Origin: an uncultured Acholeplasmataceae bacterium
GTDB taxonomy: Bacteria; Bacillota_I; Bacilli_A; ML615J-28; CAG-698
NCBI GenBank assembly: GCA_963542825.1
Contig: CAUTZD010000002.1
Span: forward strand, 6,326-70,325
Direction: 5' to 3'
Length of the DNA stretch: 64,000 nucleotides
Shown in pieces: positions 1,386-47,395 of the stretch. Positions within the stretch are counted from its first letter, which is position 1, and every line of letters starts with the position of its first letter. Both the position numbers and the translations under genes were made by a program. Below the pieces are notes generated by a model that saw nothing but the letters and a program-made list of their open reading frames with translations, did not search any database and was not told the origin of the DNA.

Positions 1386-2252
1386 ATGTTAGTTAGTATG
1401 AAGGAAATGCTTTTAAAAGCGAAGGAAGGAAAATACGCGGTTGGACATTTTAATATCAACAACCTAGAGTGGACAAAGTCTATTTTAAAAGTTGCAGAGG
1501 AAATGAAGTCACCAGTTATTTTAGGTGTTTCTGAGGGTGCTGCAAGATATATGACTGGGTATAAGGCAGTAGCAGGAATGGTTAAAGGAATGCTTGAAGA
1601 TATGAATATTACTGTCGATGTTGCTTTACATCTTGATCATGGTTCAACATTCGAAGCTTGTAAGAAAGCTATCGATGCTGGTTTTTCTTCAGTAATGATT
1701 GATGCAAGCCAACACGAGTTTTCTAAAAACATGGAAATAACAAAACAAGTAGTTGATTATGCACACGAACGGGGAATCAGCGTTGAAGCGGAACTAGGTC
1801 ACGTTGGCGGGCAGGAAGACGATGTTCAAGATCACGGCATTTTATATGCTGATAAAAACGAATGTGTTAAGATGCTTGAACTTACTAAAATTGACTGTTT
1901 AGCTCCTGCTCTTGGTAGTGTTCACGGTCCATATCATGGTGAACCAAAACTTGGCTTCAAAGAAATGAAAGAGATTCAAGAAGCAACAGGACTTCCACTT
2001 GTTCTTCATGGTGGTAGTGGTATTCCTGATGAACAAATTAAGAAAGCGATTAGTTATGGAACTTGTAAAATTAATGTTAATACCGAAAGCCAGCAAGAGT
2101 TCAATAAGATTCTTAGAGAATTTATTGCTGATAAGAAAAACAAAGACGTTTATGATCCACGAAAGCTTATTACCCCAGCAACTGCCGGAATTGAAAAAGT
2201 AGTTCGTGAAAAAATTAAACTTTTTGGTTCTGAAGGAAAAGCAAGTAAATAA
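1386..2252 (+). CDS. fba: class II fructose-1,6-bisphosphate aldolase
   Basis: [23 protein letters not shown] and VLHGGSGIP are class II FBA motifs. Strong SD (AAGGAGG) lies 7 nt upstream. Confidence 0.93.
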
Positions 2253-2260
2253 TAGACAAA

Positions 2261-2288
2261 ACGATCACTTAAAAAGTGATCGTTTTTT
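2261..2288 (+). terminator. rho-independent terminator after fba
   Basis: Perfect hairpin ACGATCACTT / AAGTGATCGT followed by a T-run. Confidence 0.8.
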
Positions 2289-2328
2289 AATAACTAATAT
2301 CTTTTGTATTTAAATTTTGACAAGTAAC

Positions 2329-2361
2329 AAAAAAGCTGAATTTTTTGAGATTCAGCTTTTT
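2329..2361 (-). terminator. rho-independent terminator after the GDPD gene (A/T-flanked, potentially bidirectional)
   Basis: GCTGAAT / ATTCAGC stem flanked by an A-run and a T-run, 7 nt beyond the minus-strand stop codon. Confidence 0.7.
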
Positions 2362-2367
2362 CTTTTA

Positions 2368-3288
2368 TTATGGTATTAATTTAGGGTTAATGCTATCAAA
2401 AATCAGATTGTCGTATTTAGGAAGATTTTCTTTATAGTCTTTCTCGTCTCTTAAAGTCCAGGCAAATGTCGGAACTTTAAATAACCCCTTACTTACCATA
2501 TAGCCAAAAGACTTTTTGATGTTGTATTGATATGAATAGAAATCAGGACGAGAAATGAAATTTGCAAGCATATTACTAAGAACGAAACGAGCGCTTTTTG
2601 GAGCTTCTTTGTTAATCATAAAATTAGAAGAAAGCTGTCCGCGTAAAACTTCGGGAGCATTCTTACGAAACCACTTCAAGGCTCTTGGGTTAAATGACTG
2701 TACACAAAGAGTAGCTTCAGGATGTTTTTTCATGGCTTCATATGTTAACTTGCAAGTATTTTCTTCAAGTTCTTTTTTCTCGACTTTGATTTCGATTAGT
2801 ACTGGTGTCTTGCCTTTAACAAGCTCTAAAACTTCATCAAATGTTGGAACGGTTTGTGAAGTTTTAAAGATATGATATTTTTTAATTTCTGCAAGCGTCA
2901 TTTCGGCAATCGGGGTTTTGTTTTTGATTTTCTCGTCGTCTGGATATTCATCGATACATGCTCTGTAAAGATTATAATCGTGGTGAACAACGAGTTTTTG
3001 ATCCTTGGTTATTTGCACATCAAGTTCAATGATGTAGTTATTATCGATAGCTTTTTGAAAACTAGCGAGAGAATTTTCACAGTGCTCGGCGCCACTTTTG
3101 TTTTCAAATAGTCCCCGATGTGCTATGGGGTTTTTAGTGAAAGCCTTGAGCTCTTGTCTTTTCGTTAGTCTTGGTGTTGCCATAAAAAAGAAAGTACTAA
3201 CAATTAAAACGAATAAAATAACAATTGTGAGCGATATACCGAAAAGAACTTTTCTTAACCGGTGGCTTTTAGGTTTTTGTGTTTGCAT
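2368..3288 (-). CDS. membrane-anchored glycerophosphodiester phosphodiesterase (GDPD family)
   Basis: N-terminal TM helix, then GDPD motifs HRGL..ENSLASF, ELDVQITKDQKLVVHHD and LIEIK. Confidence 0.85.
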   Translation of the reverse strand: MQTQKPKSHRLRKVLFGISLTIVILFVLIVSTFFFMATPRLTKRQELKAFTKNPIAHRGLFENKSGAEHCENSLASFQKAIDNNYIIELDVQITKDQKLVVHHDYNLYRACIDEYPDDEKIKNKTPIAEMTLAEIKKYHIFKTSQTVPTFDEVLELVKGKTPVLIEIKVEKKELEENTCKLTYEAMKKHPEATLCVQSFNPRALKWFRKNAPEVLRGQLSSNFMINKEAPKSARFVLSNMLANFISRPDFYSYQYNIKKSFGYMVSKGLFKVPTFAWTLRDEKDYKENLPKYDNLIFDSINPKLIP

Positions 3289-9495: not shown

Positions 9496-11136
9496 ATGCT
9501 TACAAGAATTAAAAGATTTAACATTCTAGTAAAACTTCAGTTATCAGAAGTATTTAGTAAAAGAAGCTTTAAAAAACCATCACAAATATTTAAAATGATG
9601 GTTGTTATGGCTATCATTTTCTTTGCTCTTCTTTATGGAACTCAAGTTTTAATTAATGTTATTACGCAGGGGGCAAAGCTGAATCTTAGTCCCTTAACGG
9701 AATTCTTTTTATCAGTCATCTTTATTTTTCAGATTATTGAGCTTGTTAATATTATCTCAGGATTATCATCATCTCTATATAAAAACGAACAAAACAAAAT
9801 CTTAATAACCTTTCCGGTAAATGGTCCGATGATTTATTTAAGTAAACTAACAGCATACTATCTTCGGTCTCTTCTTAAAAATGTCTTGATTATGTTTCCG
9901 ATATTCATCGCTTATGGAAAATATTTTCAGGTTTTTAGCCATTACGGTGTTCTCTATGTTTTTAAAAGTCTTTTCATTAGCATAATGCTTCCACTTTTTA
10001 TGGTACTTTTAGGAGCATTTCTTACAACTCCGGTAACGTTTATTGGTTCTCTTTTTAAAAGAAGCACAATTGCTTCTCTTGTTTTAGCGTTTTCTATTGT
10101 TGGGGTTATTATTTATTTTATTCACGCCTTCATCACAAATCTTCAGGGAGCAGATGGAATGATTAATCATATCGAATTTTATAACAGAATCAACATTATG
10201 ATTAAAGAGAAGCTTCCTAAATTTAATTACCCATCACTTTTCATTAAAAACTTTTATCGTTTTCTTTTTGCCTATAGGGCAAGTGATAGTTTTCTTAATC
10301 TTCTGCATCTTGCTATTTATTTCTTAGGACTACTTGTTTTTGGTATCGTCCTTTCGATGTTTGTCTACATTAAACTATCTAGTTATATCTTCGAAGAAAC
10401 AACGAAAAGAAAATATAAGCCAACGAGGTTTAGCAAAAGAATACATAGTAAATACATAACTTATTTAGTTAAGGAATTGAAAATTGTTTTTCGAAGTAGC
10501 GAAACAGCAATTTCAACGATTATGTATTTAGCGATTCTTCCGATTTCTCATTTCTTTCTATCTTATCTTTTTAAATCGTTTAACTTATCAGGTAGGGGAA
10601 TTAGACTAACAACAACTGTGATGCTTTTAATTGGGCTTTTGATTGTTACAACATCTAACCACCTTTCAGCATCGATTATTACGCGTGAAGGTGATGAATT
10701 TTATTTAACCAAAGTTATTCCTACCGATATCAAAAAACTCGTAGCTGCTAAACTGACAATCAACTTTGGTTTAGTTTTCTTTACAATTCTTTTTGATTTA
10801 GCATTGCTCTTATTTATTAAGCAAATGCCAACTATGACTATCATTAAATTAACAGGGATTTTACTTATTGTGGCTTTTGTTCATATCGTTTGGTCAGCAG
10901 AAATTGATATTTTAAAGCCTGAGCATAAAATGTACGGGGAGCTTAAAACTCTTGACTATAGTAAAAATATTCAAACATCGATGGCGATTGGAATCACACT
11001 TTCGCTTTTACTAGTACTTTCGTATATGTCACGGCTCGGGATTATGCTTACTTATGGTATTGGCCTTACGCTTCTTTGTTACAGGTTAGTCTTAATCAAT
11101 AAGAAACTTGATTTCTACTATAAGGATACGGAATAG
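9496..11136 (+). CDS. putative ABC exporter permease (about 12 TM)
   Basis: Very hydrophobic 546-aa ORF 4 nt after the ATPase gene. Assignment rests on context and topology only. Confidence 0.6.
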   Translation: MLTRIKRFNILVKLQLSEVFSKRSFKKPSQIFKMMVVMAIIFFALLYGTQVLINVITQGAKLNLSPLTEFFLSVIFIFQIIELVNIISGLSSSLYKNEQNKILITFPVNGPMIYLSKLTAYYLRSLLKNVLIMFPIFIAYGKYFQVFSHYGVLYVFKSLFISIMLPLFMVLLGAFLTTPVTFIGSLFKRSTIASLVLAFSIVGVIIYFIHAFITNLQGADGMINHIEFYNRINIMIKEKLPKFNYPSLFIKNFYRFLFAYRASDSFLNLLHLAIYFLGLLVFGIVLSMFVYIKLSSYIFEETTKRKYKPTRFSKRIHSKYITYLVKELKIVFRSSETAISTIMYLAILPISHFFLSYLFKSFNLSGRGIRLTTTVMLLIGLLIVTTSNHLSASIITREGDEFYLTKVIPTDIKKLVAAKLTINFGLVFFTILFDLALLLFIKQMPTMTIIKLTGILLIVAFVHIVWSAEIDILKPEHKMYGELKTLDYSKNIQTSMAIGITLSLLLVLSYMSRLGIMLTYGIGLTLLCYRLVLINKKLDFYYKDTE

Positions 11137-11752: not shown

Positions 11753-14700
11753 ATGAAGCATTTAAAAAAATTATTTGTGTTGATTTTTATAAGCCTCATC
11801 TCTTTAACACTAGCGGGCTGTAAAAAACGATTAACTGGTGATTTACAATATTTTACAATTGAAAATGTTCAAGAAGGAGGAGTTCTTAAAGAAGGAACGA
11901 CATTCTCTTTCCAGCTTAATAAAGAAAAATTACCAAAAGACAAAGTCTTAGTTAAGGTTATTTACAATAACAAGACTTTAGATAATCCGTATGAAAAGAT
12001 TACAGAACGGGTACACCGAAACTGTAAATTAACAGTTGTCTTCCGTAATCTTTATAAATACGATATTAAGATGAACGATATCGACCGTGAGGCTATTACC
12101 CTAAGCCCTAAAAAAGATAGGTACTTAGAAAACGAAACAGTAACAGGAACAATTGATTTAACGAAAGTTCCTGAAGGGAAGAAAGTTATAGGTGTCAATA
12201 TTAATCAAAAGCCTGTAACAAACTTTAATATTGAAACGAACACTTTTACTTTCGTTTGCTCTGAAGAGATTGCTTCTGACCAGGTTATTAATATTGCCTT
12301 AGTTTATCAAAACGTCAAAGTTTATAAGCTCGAGTTTTCTGGTATCAGCAGTGAGCTTAGAAGTTTGATTGATCTCAAAGACAAGTATTCAGAAGGATCA
12401 GAAATAATAGTTAACAGCGAAACTTTTAAAAACTTTAAAAGTAAAGCTGTAAGAGTTAAAAGAGTATCGTATAAAGACAGGGTTTTAGATCTTAATGTTG
12501 ATAACAAAATTACTTTTAATGAAAACGTTAAGTTAGAAATTGAAACTGAACCAATTCCTACTTATACAATCACAAGTCTAGGAAATGGACGCGATAGCCT
12601 AGTTAAAAATCCTGATAAACCAGTTTACTACGAAGGTGATGAAGTTGAACTGACATTTGATTTAACAAAGCTTATCTACCACCACCATATGAAAGAAGTT
12701 AAGGTAAACGATGAAGCAATCGACTTCACAAAACCTTATAAATTCAAAATTATGAAAAATACGAAGGTGGAAATAACTAGTGAAGAAGACCCAAAACACT
12801 TGGTGGAAGTAGATGATTCTCAAAATATTTTAAGCATTGCTAATCTTCCTAGCGACCATCTTGTTTACGAAGGAACGAAAATCACTTTAAGAGTTAATGA
12901 AGGAAATGTTCCAATTCACCACAGTGTTAAGGTTACAGTTGATGGCAATACGTTAAGTTTTACAAATCCACAAGAAGAAGTAACGATTGTTAAGCCAACT
13001 AAAATCAAAGTTGAGTTAATTGAAGACGAAAAAAAGACCTTAACTTTAACAGAAACTGGTGGCAGTTATATAACGCTTACTCCTAACGATGGAACTGTGT
13101 ATATTGGTGAAAATGTTCAGGCTGAGCTAAAAACAGCAGAGCTTAAAAACGATAACAAACGGGTTAAAAGCGCTAAGTTAAATGGCGAAGATGTTACTTT
13201 TCCATTAAACGTAAAACTTAGTGAAAATGTAACTTTAGAGGTAGTTTATGAAGAACTACCAAAATATGAAGTTACAAAGCCTAGTGATGTCGATATCTAT
13301 CTTAATGATGTGATAACAACTGAAACAAGCTTTTATGAAGGAACAGTTCTTAAATTTAAATACAATAAGCCTGTACAACCAACAGAGATTGCTTTGCTTA
13401 AAGTTAATGGTGAAGGCTATGAAGAAGGAACGCCTTACACTTTAAATAAAAATACAACCGTTACTGTAGAAGTAGTTGATGATGAAACAAAGATTCAAAG
13501 TATTGCTATTACAGTTGGTAGTAAAACCGAAGTATCACCGTTAAATGCTAATGGTAAATACCTTGTTGGGAGTAAGATTACTTTTAAAGCTATTAAATAT
13601 CATAAGCTTACCGAAATTATCATAAATGGCGAAAAAATAGAAATTACCGGAAATACTGAAGAATATCAAGTTACCGTTACAAAGACAGTAACAACGATTG
13701 AAGTTAAAGATGAAACTGTTATTGAATATAAACGTAAACTCAATTTAACACTTGCTGAAGGTGTTAAAGTTGTTGATCCAAAACCAGACAATGTTTACAC
13801 AATCGGTGAACAGTTAAAACTACAAATCATCAATACAAACCTTAAAGATTTTGAACTTGAAACAGTTGAGCTTGATGGTGTAAGCCAAACGATTACAAAC
13901 AGCACCTTTCATATGATTACAGTTACAAATTCACTAACAAACGTTGTAGCGACATCAAAAGTTGTTAGAGTACTTGTTAAGCTAAATCTTGATGGCAATG
14001 TTAATAGTACTTTAACAACAAACGAAGAAAAAGTAAATGTTGGATCAATAATTACATTTAGTGCCAAAGACTTTTATAAAATCGATAAAGTTATTGCTAA
14101 AGATTTTTCCGGGAATGAAACAACAGTTAATGTTAATTATCCTGTTTATGGATATACAGTAACCGAGAACACAAGAGAATTAACAGTAGTAACTCTTAAA
14201 ACACATACTGATTTTATTGGCGATAATACTAAATATACTTTTGTTTCGGATAAACCAGTTTATAAGGGGAAATACGAAATCGGTTCAACAATTACGATTA
14301 CTCCGGTTCCACATCATAAGTTTACTTATGTGAATTACAATCTAACGGCAGTAGCTATCGAAAGCGATGGAACAGCCAAGTTTACGCTTCTTGATGGCAA
14401 GACTTTAGAAGTCGGAATTACAAGAACTCATTATCATGTGACACTTGTGAATGGCGAAAATGTTACGGCAACACCGAGTGATCTCTGGGTACTAAATGGT
14501 GAGAAAATTACTTTAACAGCTAATGAACACTATACGATTCGTAATGTTAAAATATCAGGAACTCTTGTTGCTGTTTACGATAATACTTTTGAAACGGTTG
14601 TAACAAGCGACTTTGAACTTGAAGTTGTTACTGATATGACCGAGTGTCAAATAAACATCATTAAACCTAGCGAAGTAGATCATATGATATCTTCAACTCC

Positions 14701-17044
14701 TGATAGTAATGGTTATTATAAAGCCGGTACTGTTGTTTCCTTTAAGGCTCCCGACGGCAAGGCTTTCAAGAAAGTTAAAATTGACGGCATTTTAAAAGAA
14801 TATTCAGAAGCGGAATGTATTCAGGAACTTAAATTCTATGCTTGTTATGATTTTACAAATTCGCTTGAAATAATTGATGAATATCATCTCGTAACTAAAG
14901 TTGAGACAGTTTTACGTAAACCTTTAAAACTTAATGATACAATCTTTAATGGTGAAGTATATGAGGACTTTAATTTAGCAAGTAACATTACCCTAGAAGA
15001 AGCTGAAGTAGTAACGGCGAAAGCCCCTGGTTCTAGTACAGCTGAAAAACTTGTTTGGTTTAAAAAGGTCGGTATCTATCACATTCAAGCTGTTAAGGCA
15101 AGTGGCGAACACGTTCTTTACGAAATTAATGTAAAGTTTGAAGTTGATGGTATTGATCTTCTTTACAACAAGTTTAGTCATATGGATAGCTTCAAGGTTA
15201 AAAATGAAGTACGTGAAGTTGGGTTTAAAAACGTTTATGAACCAAACGTTGTTGCTAAAACTTCGAAATTGAGACTCGATGCTGGTGAGCTTATTGAGGA
15301 AGAAACGTATGTTCCTTCTGACTCACTTTCTTATAACTACGAAGCAACGGACAAAGATACAGGGTTAGCGGTCGATTTTGAAACGCTCGCTCACGGCTTA
15401 CAGTTTAAAAGCGATGCTTTAAACAAGACCGTTCAATTAAAGATCAAATATGCAGGTTACCAAATCATTGAGGAATTTAAAGTTGTCGATGGATTCAACG
15501 CTTACACAGATAATGGGTTGCGTGAACTTTTTGAAGATTTAAGTGTTGAAAAGATTCTACTTCAGCGTGATATTTATCCAGAGCTTAAAGATTATCAAAA
15601 AGATATTTGGGTTGATAATAGTAACCAAGTTCACGTTTCCTTAGTTAATGGTGGACCAAACAATGCTGGATCTTTCTATAAACGGATTTTAAGCGGCAAC
15701 GATCCTAACCAAAAGTATGTTGATCTTAACGGTAACTACTATATGATTAATGCGAAAAATATCCCGCTTGTAAAACCTGCAGATTATGCTAACATCAATG
15801 GTGAATATTTCTCATCAGTTGTCAACGATATCTTTAATGGGTTATTCCTTTTCTTAGTTAATGGTGTTTTAACTTACGATGGAAAACACAGAATTAGAAA
15901 CCTTCAAACAGTTGGTAATACAAACTTACCAGAACTTCACGGTGGCCAAATGAATATGGTAGCTAAAGGATCTGGCGGTCTTCATGGCATTCGTTGTTCT
16001 GTAGCTGATTTTGAAGTTCAAAATTCTAATATGTCATATTTTGTTATTGGTTCTTTCTCAAGAGCATCGTCAGTAATAATCAATAATAGCCGATTTAATA
16101 TAAACTGGGGATCAAGTGTTTTCTATTCTAATCTATATTATCATAGTCCAGAATTTACAACGACAACTTACAAAAAACTTGAGCTTACCAATTCTGAACT
16201 AGGCAGTTCTGGTGGACCAGGGTTATTTGTTCTTGACTGGGATAAGCGTGTTCGAACAAAGCTAAATGATGATTGGGCACATGATACTGACCCTAATAGT
16301 ACGGTTTTAGATGCGACACCAGAAGATCCAAAGGGACTTACACCATATGAGTTCAACCGTGATCCATATGTTAAAGTTGAAAATACGCATATTAGAAACT
16401 ATATGAAAGGTGATAGTAGTTGGTTTACTTCAATTGGAATTAACGTCAACGCTTTACTCGGGCCTGTTGATTCAACGCTCGGAGCTATTAAACACCCGAC
16501 CCTTCATCCAAAAAGTAAGACAATTTACTTTGATGAACATGGAAATAAAGCAACACAGCTTAACCATAAGTACTTTAACTTCATGGCTTATTTCCAAAAT
16601 AATTATATTAATGACTTCCAGGACAATAACTTTAATAAGCCATATACTGGAGTTCATGATACACCACAATTTGATATTAACTGGAAATATCCAGAAGCGC
16701 TTCAGTGGATACGCAATTATCATAAGAGTAATTATCTAAGCGAAGATCCAGTATTTAATGCGTTTGCGAAAGCTGCTGGTGGAACTTTCACACCATTTGG
16801 ATTTGATATCGTTCAAAAATTCAGAGAAAAGTTTAATTTGAATCCAAGTCTTGATCCAAATAACATTCAGATGATCTTTGCCAGCTGTATTATCGAAGGA
16901 TATTTGACGCATAAAGTAATTCTTAATAATCCAGCGGATGGGCGTGATTATTTGGAATTTATTCCATACGGACATCCACTTGATCCAGAACACAAACACC
17001 GCTTCCCAGGATTTGTAATGCTTGAGATGATGGATAGAGACTAA
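11753..17044 (+). CDS. giant surface lipoprotein: about 13 tandem divergent 75-85-aa beta-sandwich repeats plus a C-terminal beta-helix-like domain
   Basis: Signal peptide with lipobox LTLAGC and a strong SD. Recurrent module pattern: Y.EG..v.l, then (K)V.vNG..i, then ...t.V.ve. The C-terminal about 750 aa contain Gly/Asn/Ser-rich turns suggestive of a parallel beta-helix. Confidence 0.85.
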   Translation: MKHLKKLFVLIFISLISLTLAGCKKRLTGDLQYFTIENVQEGGVLKEGTTFSFQLNKEKLPKDKVLVKVIYNNKTLDNPYEKITERVHRNCKLTVVFRNLYKYDIKMNDIDREAITLSPKKDRYLENETVTGTIDLTKVPEGKKVIGVNINQKPVTNFNIETNTFTFVCSEEIASDQVINIALVYQNVKVYKLEFSGISSELRSLIDLKDKYSEGSEIIVNSETFKNFKSKAVRVKRVSYKDRVLDLNVDNKITFNENVKLEIETEPIPTYTITSLGNGRDSLVKNPDKPVYYEGDEVELTFDLTKLIYHHHMKEVKVNDEAIDFTKPYKFKIMKNTKVEITSEEDPKHLVEVDDSQNILSIANLPSDHLVYEGTKITLRVNEGNVPIHHSVKVTVDGNTLSFTNPQEEVTIVKPTKIKVELIEDEKKTLTLTETGGSYITLTPNDGTVYIGENVQAELKTAELKNDNKRVKSAKLNGEDVTFPLNVKLSENVTLEVVYEELPKYEVTKPSDVDIYLNDVITTETSFYEGTVLKFKYNKPVQPTEIALLKVNGEGYEEGTPYTLNKNTTVTVEVVDDETKIQSIAITVGSKTEVSPLNANGKYLVGSKITFKAIKYHKLTEIIINGEKIEITGNTEEYQVTVTKTVTTIEVKDETVIEYKRKLNLTLAEGVKVVDPKPDNVYTIGEQLKLQIINTNLKDFELETVELDGVSQTITNSTFHMITVTNSLTNVVATSKVVRVLVKLNLDGNVNSTLTTNEEKVNVGSIITFSAKDFYKIDKVIAKDFSGNETTVNVNYPVYGYTVTENTRELTVVTLKTHTDFIGDNTKYTFVSDKPVYKGKYEIGSTITITPVPHHKFTYVNYNLTAVAIESDGTAKFTLLDGKTLEVGITRTHYHVTLVNGENVTATPSDLWVLNGEKITLTANEHYTIRNVKISGTLVAVYDNTFETVVTSDFELEVVTDMTECQINIIKPSEVDHMISSTPDSNGYYKAGTVVSFKAPDGKAFKKVKIDGILKEYSEAECIQELKFYACYDFTNSLEIIDEYHLVTKVETVLRKPLKLNDTIFNGEVYEDFNLASNITLEEAEVVTAKAPGSSTAEKLVWFKKVGIYHIQAVKASGEHVLYEINVKFEVDGIDLLYNKFSHMDSFKVKNEVREVGFKNVYEPNVVAKTSKLRLDAGELIEEETYVPSDSLSYNYEATDKDTGLAVDFETLAHGLQFKSDALNKTVQLKIKYAGYQIIEEFKVVDGFNAYTDNGLRELFEDLSVEKILLQRDIYPELKDYQKDIWVDNSNQVHVSLVNGGPNNAGSFYKRILSGNDPNQKYVDLNGNYYMINAKNIPLVKPADYANINGEYFSSVVNDIFNGLFLFLVNGVLTYDGKHRIRNLQTVGNTNLPELHGGQMNMVAKGSGGLHGIRCSVADFEVQNSNMSYFVIGSFSRASSVIINNSRFNINWGSSVFYSNLYYHSPEFTTTTYKKLELTNSELGSSGGPGLFVLDWDKRVRTKLNDDWAHDTDPNSTVLDATPEDPKGLTPYEFNRDPYVKVENTHIRNYMKGDSSWFTSIGINVNALLGPVDSTLGAIKHPTLHPKSKTIYFDEHGNKATQLNHKYFNFMAYFQNNYINDFQDNNFNKPYTGVHDTPQFDINWKYPEALQWIRNYHKSNYLSEDPVFNAFAKAAGGTFTPFGFDIVQKFREKFNLNPSLDPNNIQMIFASCIIEGYLTHKVILNNPADGRDYLEFIPYGHPLDPEHKHRFPGFVMLEMMDRD

Positions 17045-44427: not shown

Positions 44428-44814
44428 ATGGCAAAAGCAAAGACAAGAAAAAGAAAAGTTAAGAAGAATATTCCTTTAGGAATAGCTCATATTCATTCAA
44501 CATTTAATAATACTGTTGTCACTATTACTGACCCTGAAGGCAACGCTGTTGCTTGGTCTAGTGCTGGTGCTTTAGGCTTCAAAGGTAGCAAAAAATCAAC
44601 ACCATTTGCAGCGCAGATGGCAAGCGAAGCTTGTGCTAAAGCTGTTTTAGAATACGGAATGCAAAAAGTTAAAGTATCAGTTAAAGGACCTGGTCCTGGT
44701 CGCGATGCAGCAATCAAGACACTACAAATCACAGGGTTACAAATCACAGAAATCAGTGATGTTACACCTGTTCCCCATAACGGATGTCGTCCACCAAAAC
44801 GACCAAGAGGATAA
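44428..44814 (+). CDS. rpsK: 30S ribosomal protein S11
   Basis: [18 protein letters not shown] and [12 protein letters not shown]. Confidence 0.97.
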
Positions 44815-44851
44815 TTTTTTGAATACTATTTATGACGATTGGAGGTAATAG

Positions 44852-45856
44852 ATGGCTAAACTAGAATCATTAAAACCCCAAGTTAAAGTATCGGAAACTC
44901 CAGAAACAAACTATGCGAAGTTTACAATCACGGGGCTTCCTAGAGGTTTTGCCCAGACTTTAGGCAATTCCTTAAGACGAGTACTTTTATCTTCAATACC
45001 AGGAGTCGCATTTTCGGCTGTCGAAATCGACGGAGCACTACACGAGTTTACCGCTCTTGATGGCGTTTATGAAGATGTTACTCAAATTATTCTTAATCTT
45101 AAAAAAGTTGTTTTAGTTATCGATAACGACAAACTTTTTAAGGTTAACAGTAAACCGGTAAAAGAAGAACTATACGTATTTGAAATCGATCACAAAGGCA
45201 AAGGTGAAATCAAAGCCAAGGACTTAAAACATTCAAGTGAAATTAGGATTATTAATCCTGAAGAGCACATTGCCACCGTTAGCGATGGAGGACACTTCAA
45301 ATGTTTCCTTTTTGCAAGACGAGGGATTGGTTATGTTGGAGCAAACGACAACAAAATATTTTGCGAAGACATTGGTGGCAACATCATCACAGGCCGGATT
45401 GCAATCGATTCAATCTTTACACCAGTTATACGCTGCCGATACGACTGCTTGAAGGAAAATAACCTTAACGGTCAAGAAACTGATAAGCTCGTGCTTGAAG
45501 TTCGGACAAACGGTAGTATTAAACCAACTGATGCTTTAAGTTTAGCTTCGAAATTTTTAGATGATCATTTTGCTGTTTTGAAAGAAGCAGTAAATGAAGA
45601 TATGCAAAACATCTTCACTTTCCAGAAAGGGACTCCTAAAGTTGATAAACGCTTAGAAATTGAACTTGAAACTTTGGATTTCTCTTTGAGAACTAGTAAC
45701 TGTTTTAAGGCAGCAGAACTTGTAACGGTTGGTGATCTTTTAAAATATTCCGAAGAAGATTTAAAAAAGCTTCGAAACTTAGGTGATATTTCAATCAGCG
45801 AAATCAAAGAAAAACTAAGTAATATGAACTTATCGCTAGCTAGCGATAAAAAATAA
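44852..45856 (+). CDS. rpoA: DNA-directed RNA polymerase alpha subunit, copy 1 (canonical operon position)
   Basis: NTD motifs TLGNSLRRVLLSSIPG, IDGALHEF..GVYEDVTQIILNLKK and INPEEHIATV. The C-terminal HhH-like domain is present but degenerate (LDFSLRTSNCFKA). Confidence 0.88.
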   Translation: MAKLESLKPQVKVSETPETNYAKFTITGLPRGFAQTLGNSLRRVLLSSIPGVAFSAVEIDGALHEFTALDGVYEDVTQIILNLKKVVLVIDNDKLFKVNSKPVKEELYVFEIDHKGKGEIKAKDLKHSSEIRIINPEEHIATVSDGGHFKCFLFARRGIGYVGANDNKIFCEDIGGNIITGRIAIDSIFTPVIRCRYDCLKENNLNGQETDKLVLEVRTNGSIKPTDALSLASKFLDDHFAVLKEAVNEDMQNIFTFQKGTPKVDKRLEIELETLDFSLRTSNCFKAAELVTVGDLLKYSEEDLKKLRNLGDISISEIKEKLSNMNLSLASDKK

Positions 45857-45877
45857 TAAGAAAGGACAAGAAGAAAT

Positions 45878-46243
45878 ATGTCACTTTATAAAAGACTTGG
45901 TCGTAACCAAGCACAAAGAAAAGCACTCTTCAAAGATTTGATTACCGATTTGATTTTAAATAACCAAATCGTGACAACACTTGCGAAAGCCAAAGAGTTA
46001 AAACCACTTGCTGATAAAATGGTAACTTTAGGCAAAAAGCAAACTTTAGCGGCTCGTAGGCAAGCAGCAGAGACGATACGCTTTGAAGAAAACGAAAAAG
46101 GTGAAACTGCTCTAAAAATTTTATTTGATGATTTGGCTAAACGGTTTAAGAAACGTAATGGCGGTTATACCCGAGTTTTACGGATGGAACCACGCCAAGG
46201 AGACAGTGCTCCTATGGCTCTCATCATGTTTGTTGAGAAATAA
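45878..46243 (+). CDS. rplQ: 50S ribosomal protein L17
   Basis: YKRLGRNQAQRKALFKDL and GGYTRVLRMEPRQGD. Confidence 0.96.
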   Translation: MSLYKRLGRNQAQRKALFKDLITDLILNNQIVTTLAKAKELKPLADKMVTLGKKQTLAARRQAAETIRFEENEKGETALKILFDDLAKRFKKRNGGYTRVLRMEPRQGDSAPMALIMFVEK

Positions 46244-46257
46244 AAGGGGAAATAAAT

Positions 46258-47283
46258 TTGCGGAAATTTGAGTTTATTAAACCAGTATTAAATGGTGATA
46301 TCAATCCTAGCATTAACTATGGTAAGTTTACTTTGAATAAACTAGAACGCGGTTATGGGATTACTTTAGGCAACGCCTTAAGACGGATTATGTTATCATC
46401 GTTTCCCGGAATTGCAGTTGTTGGCGTTAAAATTAATAATATCGAGGCTCCACATCTACCAATTCCTAACTGTGAAGATTCGCTCATTAAACTTATTTTA
46501 AATTTAAAGGAATTAGTCGTTAAAGGCGAGATTGCGAAAAACGATATCGTTAAAGTAACGATTGAAAAACAAGTAGGAGACCTTCATGCTTTTGATATCA
46601 AAATGCCTGATGGACTTGAGATTATTAATCTTGATTTAAAACTTTTAACAGTTTTAAAAGGTAAAATAACTTTTGATATTTTCTTAAAGAAACTCGAGGG
46701 ATATCAAACTGAAAACGAAGTAAAGAGTTATTTGAAAAATCTTGGAAGCGACGTTTATCCTATTGATGCTTCTTTTACACCGATTAAGCGGTGCCGGTAC
46801 ACAGTTGATAAAGCCCGAGTTGGTGATAATACTGACTATGACCTTTTAACGCTCGAAGTGTGGACTGATGGTTCTGTTACCCCTCAAGAGGCGGTTGCTA
46901 AAGCAGCCGATGTTGCTACAGAATCGCTTTTAGTTCTTGAAGCCTTAAATAAAGACATTAGTAGTCAGTACTATTTATACGAACTTGAAGAACAAAAGGT
47001 TGATAAGCGCCTATTCAAGAAAATCGAAGATCTTGATCTATCAGTAAGATCTTATAACTGCTTAAAAAAAGAAAGTATTCTTACAGTTGGTGATTTGATT
47101 CTCAAAACTGAAGCCGAATTAAGACGCATCGATAATATGGGAACAAAATCAGTTGCGGAAATTATTGACGTTTTAAAGAGCCACGGTTTAGAACTAAAAC
47201 CATCCGCTGATAGTTTAATTCCTAACAATTTAGAAAATGAAAAAATTGCTCAGCCTTCAGAACTAGCTGAAAAGAAAAAATAG
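46258..47283 (+). CDS. RNA polymerase alpha subunit paralog, copy 2 (full-length NTD plus canonical CTD)
   Basis: TTG start with AAAGGGGA 7 nt upstream. LERGYGITLGNALRRIMLSSFPG, RVGDNTDYDLLTLEVWTDGS and CTD LDLSVRSYNCLKK..TVGDL..NMGTKSVAEI. Confidence 0.8.
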   Translation: MRKFEFIKPVLNGDINPSINYGKFTLNKLERGYGITLGNALRRIMLSSFPGIAVVGVKINNIEAPHLPIPNCEDSLIKLILNLKELVVKGEIAKNDIVKVTIEKQVGDLHAFDIKMPDGLEIINLDLKLLTVLKGKITFDIFLKKLEGYQTENEVKSYLKNLGSDVYPIDASFTPIKRCRYTVDKARVGDNTDYDLLTLEVWTDGSVTPQEAVAKAADVATESLLVLEALNKDISSQYYLYELEEQKVDKRLFKKIEDLDLSVRSYNCLKKESILTVGDLILKTEAELRRIDNMGTKSVAEIIDVLKSHGLELKPSADSLIPNNLENEKIAQPSELAEKKK

Positions 47284-47290
47284 TAAATAA

Positions 47291-47314
47291 AAAAAGGGGC
47301 AAAAGCCCCTTTTT
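47291..47314 (+). terminator. rho-independent terminator closing the ribosomal/alpha cluster
   Basis: GGGGC-AAAA-GCCCC followed by TTTTT. Confidence 0.85.
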
Positions 47315-47395
47315 AAGTTGTTAGTTTTCCTTGCTCCTATTTTTTAGTTTTAAGAAAAATTGAAAAATAGAGTATAATAATTCTTGGTGGTAGCA

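Follow-up and report, generated by a model that had tools for sequence, protein, structure and literature searches.

Two diverged RNA polymerase alpha genes flanking rplQ in an uncultured low-GC bacterium: a candidate operon-linked alpha heterodimer

Known two-alpha systems and the locus studied here

The alpha homodimer of bacterial RNA polymerase (RNAP) is treated as universal, and we know of no bacterium other than Francisella in which an alpha heterodimer has been demonstrated. Here we analyse a stretch of 64,000 nucleotides of contig CAUTZD010000002.1 (hereafter, at its full length, the window), which stems from an uncultured low-GC bacterium of gut or digester, and in which the gene of ribosomal protein L17 (rplQ) is flanked by two intact, full-length rpoA genes, the trio ending the operon. 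The first of these genes (copy 1) and its orthologue are referred to as type A, the second (copy 2) and its orthologues as type B; orthologues were recovered on two further contigs, L076 (both types) and L002 (type B). In what we consider the best reading, the pair would be an independently evolved, operon-linked analogue of the Francisella two-alpha polymerase.

In Francisella, the products of rpoA1 (FTT_0350) and rpoA2 (FTT_1442c) were shown biochemically to form an alpha1/alpha2 heterodimer (PMC3294249, PMC1891329), a structure of which is available (PDB 6wmp). Its alpha2 subunit has Gln at position 45, and this loss of R45 fixes the orientation of the dimer (PMC3294249; residues are numbered throughout as in E. 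coli, the sequence of which was verified against the PDB, and the assembly determinants are those summarised in that paper). The likeness to types A and B lies in the presence, across a lineage, of two strongly diverged full-length paralogues that both accelerated after duplication, and in an asymmetric loss of the determinants for contact with the large subunits; both systems may be read as a homodimer subfunctionalised into an oriented heterodimer. In contrast to the Francisella pair, types A and B both keep R45, which Francisella alpha2 has replaced; they sit in one operon around rplQ, whereas Francisella rpoA2 lies elsewhere in the genome; and their asymmetry runs by domain, with the insert domain decaying in B and the linker and the DNA-binding residues of the C-terminal domain (CTD) decaying in A. 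The heterodimer itself is biochemically and structurally established in Francisella, while that of A and B is deduced from sequences. The window proteins score 95-121 bits against the alpha1/alpha2 chains of 6wmp and 223-229 bits against Firmicutes RpoA; since the bit scores favour Firmicutes RpoA and both types branch within the Bacilli, the duplication is independent of that in Francisella.

The preliminary description of the window had named Francisella as the one well-documented bacterium with two alpha genes, which proved too narrow: Chloroflexus spp. and Streptomyces avermitilis also carry two rpoA genes each, the Chloroflexus pair being ancestral to the genus (PMC3294249). In the paralogues of these organisms, the regions for dimerisation and for contact with beta and beta-prime are free from drastic substitutions, and the two copies may still be equivalent (PMC3294249), whereas the A and B copies have lost 40-51% of the positions that are conserved among their relatives.

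Archaeal Rpo3/Rpo11 (D/L) and eukaryotic Rpb3/Rpb11 and AC40/AC19 consist of a large partner, in which the insert domain is retained and which makes the contact with the beta-like subunit, and a small partner without the insert (PMC3294249). Like these platforms, the A/B pair comprises two different alpha-like proteins, and it may represent the first steps of the same asymmetry (by analogy, not by descent). Unlike in them, the type B insert is full-length and predicted to fold (in spite of a deletion of ~12 amino acids), and both A and B keep a CTD, which the archaeal and eukaryotic alpha-like proteins are without; no Rpb10- or Rpb12-like partners are implied for A and B. With the canonical RpoA homodimer (TIGR02027), A and B have in common the domain architecture, the operon position, R45, K86 and R265. 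The canonical related loci, however, hold one highly conserved rpoA with an acidic tail, and the window holds two, which keep approximately half to 60% of the conserved positions.

Two RpoA proteins and what each has kept

The profile searches proposed in the preliminary description place both proteins in the RpoA family: copy 1 reaches 280.1 bits and copy 2 277.0 bits with TIGR02027 (the NCBIfam rpoA equivalog, cut-off 227.8 bits), and the Pfam domains for dimerisation (PF01193, split), insert (PF01000) and CTD (PF03118) are found in each, the insert domain of copy 2 scoring 32.5 bits, i.e. 1.4 under the Pfam gathering score of 33.9. The strong divergence that had been claimed is borne out by an identity of 34% between the two copies. 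The AlphaFold model of copy 2 has a mean predicted local distance difference test score of 82.8 (84-94 in the blocks of the insert domain) and was built from a 72-sequence alignment of mostly canonical RpoA, so that it speaks for compatibility with the fold and is no proof of it; the best Foldseek matches of this model in the PDB are all RNAP alpha chains (probability 1.00). The assembly determinants described for E. coli are R45 for beta, and K86 and V173 for beta-prime (PMC3294249). R45 and K86 are present in five of five A and B proteins, and position 173 is occupied by I or M. That both copies are functional RNAP alpha subunits would best explain these sequence features.

The nearest relatives common to both copies all have a single RpoA and are uncultured metagenome-assembled genomes (MAGs) labelled Bacilli, Acholeplasmataceae/Acholeplasmatales or Anaeroplasma, to which copy 1 is ~50% and copy 2 41-44% identical. 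Both paralogues evolve faster than ordinary RpoA. Canonical RpoA pairs with 70-75% identity in ribosomal proteins S11 and L17 (S11+L17) are 66% identical to each other (minimum 58%); at equal S11+L17 distance the identity to relatives is 47% for copy 1 and 40% for copy 2, and 43% and 42% for the L076 pair. In 232 alignment columns conserved among the relatives, a typical relative keeps 93% of the residues, copy 1 60% and copy 2 49%.

These losses are unevenly spread over the domains, and in opposite ways in the two types. When the relative-conserved columns kept by only one type are counted, the window pair gives 38 columns for A only and 2 for B only in the insert domain, as compared with 6 and 22 in the linker and CTD (Fisher p = 2e-10); the respective counts for the L076 pair are 23 and 4, and 5 and 24 (p = 6e-7). 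Thus, the complementary motif subsets of the preliminary description (the quoted motifs are all present) hold statistically. Type A keeps the insert domain, the beta-footprint segment 'HEF' and the dimerisation helix H3, and is strongly diverged in the linker and CTD. Type B has preserved the N-terminal strand and helix H1, the strand DYDxLTLEVWT, and the linker together with the DNA-binding determinant of its CTD; it has lost the HEF segment, and degeneration affects the insert domain, where the ~12-residue deletion lies. Among the relatives the CTD is the best-conserved domain (82% identity) and the insert domains are 64% identical, while the type A proteins are 31-40% identical to the relatives in the CTD and 4-19% in the linker, and the type B insert domains 26-35%. 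Between lineages, the B insert domains share 28-31% and the A-type CTDs 37% identity, and this continuing divergence points to an ongoing decay under relaxed constraint, rather than to a new conserved function.

At the level of single residues, the segment protected by beta (65-75, 'HEF') is kept by type A at 13 of 22 positions and by type B at 5 of 33 (p = 0.001). At the dimer-interface position 227 (Q227 in E. coli), all 46 of the relatives and both A proteins have His, whereas the three B proteins have S (copy 2), E and E. Helix H3 is, overall, better preserved in A than in B. The CTD shows the reverse pattern. R265 is universal, and the type B CTD additionally keeps N268, C269, K271, G296, K298 and S299 (window and L002 protein; S299T in the upstream gene of L076). 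R/K297 and K298 are invariant in the canonical relatives, and K298 is K in all B proteins; in type A, K298 is replaced by I (copy 1) or Q and R297 by D (copy 1) or K, and the L076 protein additionally carries N268G, C269A and K271E. Copy 1 had been described as degenerate in its CTD, which holds for R/K297, K298 and most of the other conserved CTD and linker positions; the domain nonetheless scores 67.9 bits on PF03118 and retains R265, N268 and C269. The full '265 determinant' (R265, N268, C269, G296, K298, S299) is present in B and not in A, in line with the earlier proposal that a single protomer would carry the classical CTD.

Operon structure, selection and distribution

The genes secY, adk, map, infA, rpsM, rpsK, rpoA copy 1, rplQ and rpoA copy 2 follow one another in this order on the + strand of the window and form the 3' end of a ribosomal-protein/alpha supra-operon (Table 1). 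Checks of the open reading frames (ORFs) and of the sequence agree with the preliminary description as to the two complete alpha ORFs, their coordinates and starts, the Shine-Dalgarno (SD) sequence of copy 2, rplQ as the only gene between the copies, and a terminator-like hairpin that closes the unit. The gaps are short (21 nt from copy 1 to rplQ, 14 nt from the rplQ stop to the start of copy 2), and a scan of 16.5 kb found no terminator-like or promoter-like signal in the interval between rplQ and copy 2. The hairpin 3' of copy 2 is a terminator-like operon end that could act in both directions, and the promoter-like site that follows it (47350-47378) precedes a unit of a cysteine-desulfurase-like gene and thiI, thereby marking the 3' boundary of the alpha operon. 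Because of the short gaps, the lack of an internal promoter or terminator, and the presence of the hairpin and promoter-like site after copy 2, copy 1, rplQ and copy 2 are read as co-transcribed in one unit. Translation of copy 2 from its TTG gives the N-terminus MRKFEFIKP, i.e. the N-terminal consensus of the related canonical RpoA, which confirms this start; the SD-like AAAGGGGA (46243-46250) shares the final base of the rplQ stop codon. The B orthologue of L002 likewise has a TTG start (SD GAGAGG), and both alpha genes of L076 have ATG and AGGAGG.

Table 1. Features at the 3' end of the alpha operon (window coordinates)
Feature	Coordinates	Strand	Evidence
rpsK (ribosomal protein S11)	44428..44814	+	ORF; Pfam S11 at the equivalent position of L001 (second strain)
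Shine-Dalgarno GGAGG, 6 nt 5' of copy 1 ATG	44841..44845	+	sequence reading
rpoA copy 1 (type A alpha), ATG start, 334 aa	44852..45856	+	ORF, Pfam, TIGR02027; orthologue L076:2131-3123
rplQ (ribosomal protein L17), between both alpha genes	45878..46243	+	Pfam PF01196, 114 bits
purine-rich SD-like AAAAGGGGA, 7-8 nt 5' of copy 2 TTG	46243..46250	+	sequence reading
rpoA copy 2 (type B alpha), TTG start, 341 aa	46258..47283	+	ORF, Pfam, TIGR02027; orthologues P0002 (L002), P0211 (L076)
terminator-like palindromic GC-rich hairpin, flanked by A-run and T-run	47291..47314	.	10 pairs, 5 GC
promoter-like site TTAAGA-17-TATAAT of the next unit	47350..47378	+	10/12 matches, best in the scanned 16.5 kb

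The final codons of copy 1 (45829-45850), just 5' of the SD of rplQ, also contain a palindrome (CTTATCGCTAGCTAGCGATAAA) of 9 perfectly matched base pairs and a loop of 4 nt. It is trailed by an A-run and not by a T-run, so that it is not a + strand terminator; it could influence mRNA processing or the relative translation of the genes downstream. A search of all 64 kb with Rfam at gathering thresholds gave no hit, i.e. no tRNA, rRNA, riboswitch or ribosomal-protein leader, although the window includes most of the S10-spc-alpha gene cluster. Outside the alpha operon, two long ORFs, one of 1763 aa (11753-17044, + strand) and one of 546 aa (9496-11136), are without a Pfam match at E <= 1e-5.

Both copies are under strong purifying selection. 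In comparison with a second strain (L001; synonymous divergence, dS, ~0.15), the ratio of nonsynonymous to synonymous substitution rates (dN/dS) amounts to 0.054 in copy 1 and to 0.031 in copy 2, i.e. lies in the range of the neighbouring housekeeping genes (0-0.085); rplQ shows zero nonsynonymous changes. Clusters at 90% identity, drawn from NCBI, ENA, JGI and Logan assemblies, contain 14 full-length copy 2 and 9 copy 1 sequences (those of the window included), all intact, and the order copy 1-rplQ-copy 2 recurs in at least five independent assemblies (L001, L080, L081 and L082 among them). An assembly artefact is ruled out by the agreement of these assemblies, and a pseudogene by the low dN/dS and the intactness of all strain variants; a recent horizontal acquisition of copy 2 is unsupported, as the codon usage and the GC content at third codon positions of both copies match those of ribosomal-protein genes. 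Two database 'RpoA' proteins of 446 and 569 amino acids (P0003, L033:26-1366, and P0208) rank high against copy 2 and might be taken for duplicated or fused alpha genes; they contain exact internal repeats, i.e. are assembly artefacts, and were set aside. Among the strain variants, copy 1 of the window deviates from its species by R218 (45503-45505) and I193 (45428-45430), the other variants having W218 and T193 (8 of 8); position 218 is that of the conserved Trp in the strand LEVWTNGS, within the beta-prime-footprint segment 195-210 of E. coli.

The two-gene arrangement is rare. A single S11-rpoA-L17 arrangement was found in 30 loci of GTDB representatives and 42 metagenome loci with the closest RpoA (tblastn; this synteny, with rpsK 5' of rpoA, is common to all related loci), and a second alpha gene was absent at all of them, by which two rpoA genes as a common trait of related genomes are ruled out. 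The related canonical RpoA (L003-L075) are unusually long (351-379 amino acids) owing to an Asp/Glu-rich tail of 30-60 residues after the CTD, of which type A has none and type B a short remnant. Orthologues of the window genes were recovered from two Logan contigs. On L002 (1.3 kb), an L17 gene with a product 83% identical to that of the window is followed by a B-type gene (59% identical to copy 2); on L076 (3.1 kb), S11 is followed by a B-type gene (41% identical to copy 2), L17 (70% identical to that of the window) and an A-type gene (2131-3123) that runs off the contig end. An exhaustive profile search of 1.84 billion representatives gave no B-type protein other than that of L076, and a profile of the three B sequences retrieved only three B clusters among 5.8 billion (582-644 bits), everything else scoring at most 383 bits. 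In the literature, we found no report of two rpoA genes in Bacilli or Mollicutes-like bacteria.

In a neighbour-joining (NJ) tree of 60 sequences and 337 columns, copy 2, the L002 protein and the product of the upstream L076 gene form a type B clade, and copy 1 and the product of the downstream L076 gene a type A clade, each with 100/100 bootstrap support and in agreement with reciprocal identities; all trees are NJ trees, and two of the three organisms bearing A or B genes are known from very short contigs only. Both types branch as long branches near the base of the related Bacilli group. Considering that types A and B are orthologous in the three organisms, the duplication is older than their split. 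The order around rplQ is swapped between lineages, being A-L17-B in the window (with B likewise downstream in L002) and B-L17-A in L076 (667-3123); a rearrangement and a differential loss after a larger tandem duplication are both possibilities.

A different alpha duplication was noticed in 'Candidatus Termititenax persephonae' (P0210 = GBR76562.1; L077:5001-6581; GCA_003864475.1, BGZO01000033). Here, a 526-amino-acid ORF at the canonical S13-S11-S4-[rpoA]-L17 position encodes two alpha N-terminal domains (NTDs; 53% identical), one linker and one CTD, and the first NTD has a 7-residue deletion exactly over the HEF beta-footprint segment. Judging from its sequence, the ORF, which is known from one database record, has the appearance of two unequal alpha protomers joined covalently into a pseudo-dimer that has one CTD. 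As in the A/B pair, the alpha duplication is in tandem at the canonical locus and HEF is lost in one NTD; it differs in that the NTDs are fused and in the phylum.

The proposed heterodimer, its alternatives and its meaning

We propose that the pair arose when the one rpoA of the common ancestor of a small lineage of uncultured low-GC Bacilli was duplicated, and that both copies would have remained in the alpha operon, one on each side of rplQ, to be transcribed together. After the duplication both copies would have accelerated and undergone subfunctionalisation by complementary degeneration, with constraint lost in a different part of each protein. In type A, the linker and the CTD surface that binds DNA would have drifted, while the insert domain, helix H3 and the HEF segment were retained; in type B, drift would have affected the HEF segment, the insert domain and some of helix H3, while the linker and the canonical DNA-binding CTD were retained. 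The core enzyme may then consist of one A and one B in fixed orientation, with A in the beta-contacting alphaI position and B in the beta-prime-contacting alphaII position, and the resulting polymerase would have one classical CTD for the binding of UP-elements and activators. To a core enzyme with an A:B alpha heterodimer we assign a probability of about 0.6, as the old duplication, the selection on both copies, the co-transcription, the acceleration and the complementary degeneration match what has been described for Francisella. The incorporation of both proteins into RNAP, the formation of the heterodimer and its orientation are what we infer from these comparisons. The orientation with A on beta and B on beta-prime is advanced tentatively, at somewhat less than even odds; it is proposed because B loses the 65-75 segment and the conservation of the insert, and by analogy to Rpb3/Rpb11, in which the partner on the beta-prime side is without the insert.

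Several observations weigh against this interpretation. Both types retain R45, the key residue for beta binding, and A and B do not differ significantly in the beta-prime-footprint segments 175-185 and 195-210 (p = 0.79 and 0.36), so that these segments are uninformative and the orientation is supported mainly by the insert domain and segment 65-75. The dimer-interface residues of type A are all canonical, and an A2 homodimer is possible. Copy 2 has a TTG start and a weaker SD and copy 1 an ATG and GGAGG, a poor fit to a strict 1:1 stoichiometry, although start codon and SD are the same for the two genes of L076. The count of rpoA genes covers 64 kb of the genome, and a third rpoA elsewhere is possible. 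Lastly, the monophyly of A and B together has a bootstrap support of only 25% (NJ), and only four residues are shared-derived between them, two of these in the CTD. A single duplication within the lineage would be the simplest reading of the origin of the pair; since the monophyly reaches no more than this 25%, one copy could instead stem from an old transfer out of a related lineage.

The two genes could also supply alternative polymerases, with A2 and B2 homodimers or a mixture of A2, AB and B2, i.e. core enzymes that differ in promoter or activator response and whose ratio is regulated. With its canonical interface residues A2 should form, Francisella offers the precedent of a weak alpha1 homodimer of low activity (PMC3294249), and an unequal synthesis of A and B is allowed by the start codons and SD strengths, which differ in the window and in L002. 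We nevertheless judge such alternative enzymes unlikely: a single operon with a 14-nt gap and without an internal promoter or terminator leaves little room for an independent transcriptional control of the two genes (for which reason the exchange of alpha subunits as a regulatory device, the second option of the preliminary description, has become less likely), and the decay is complementary, so that neither homodimer would carry the full set of conserved features, and in B2 both protomers would be devoid of the invariant H227 and of the beta-footprint segment.

We find it improbable that one of the paralogues, B rather than A, works outside the core RNAP altogether (as a free DNA-binding or adaptor protein by means of its CTD, or as an assembly or decoy factor), A2 then forming the core. 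The insert domain of B, which scores below the gathering threshold and is poorly conserved between B lineages (28-31%), the loss of the HEF segment and of H227, and the canonical type A interface would fit such a role. In helix H1 (LGNALRR), R45, K86 and the strand DYDxLTLEVWT, however, B is preserved no less well than A; it scores above the RpoA equivalog cut-off and is, within the species, more constrained than A (dN/dS 0.031). Moreover, with A2 as the whole core, no canonical DNA-binding CTD would remain in the enzyme, as both A proteins have lost K298 and that of L076 also N268, C269 and K271. An artefactual or decaying second copy (an assembly chimera, a recent segmental duplication, a pseudogene) is scarcely credible. 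Duplicated-rpoA assembly artefacts do exist in the databases (P0003, P0208), but here at least five independent assemblies agree, the copies are no repeats (34% identity), the ORFs are intact in all variants with dN/dS of 0.03-0.05, and orthologues of both types occur in other species.

To return to the A:B heterodimer, a bolder and more doubtful form of it, which we consider rather less likely than not, is that of an obligate oriented heterodimer partway to Rpb3/Rpb11, with A as the beta-side platform, its CTD freed from DNA, and B on the beta-prime side as the bearer of the sole classical CTD. The swapped gene order and the fusion in 'Ca. Termititenax' would then be further signs of recurrent transitions from homodimer to heterodimer.

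If the A:B heterodimer is real, it is a second and independent case of an alpha heterodimer, in a phylum other than that of Francisella, with the two alpha genes locked in one operon and a domain-by-domain split of what each copy preserves. It would constitute a natural experiment on the alpha surfaces required at the beta-side and at the beta-prime-side position, and a replicate for the study of how homomeric complexes become obligate heteromers, as en route to Rpb3/Rpb11. A bacterial RNAP with a single functional alpha-CTD at a fixed position would also bear on whether one alpha-CTD is sufficient for promoter recognition. From a practical point of view, two divergent rpoA genes per genome can mislead marker-gene phylogenies and estimates of MAG contamination in this lineage.

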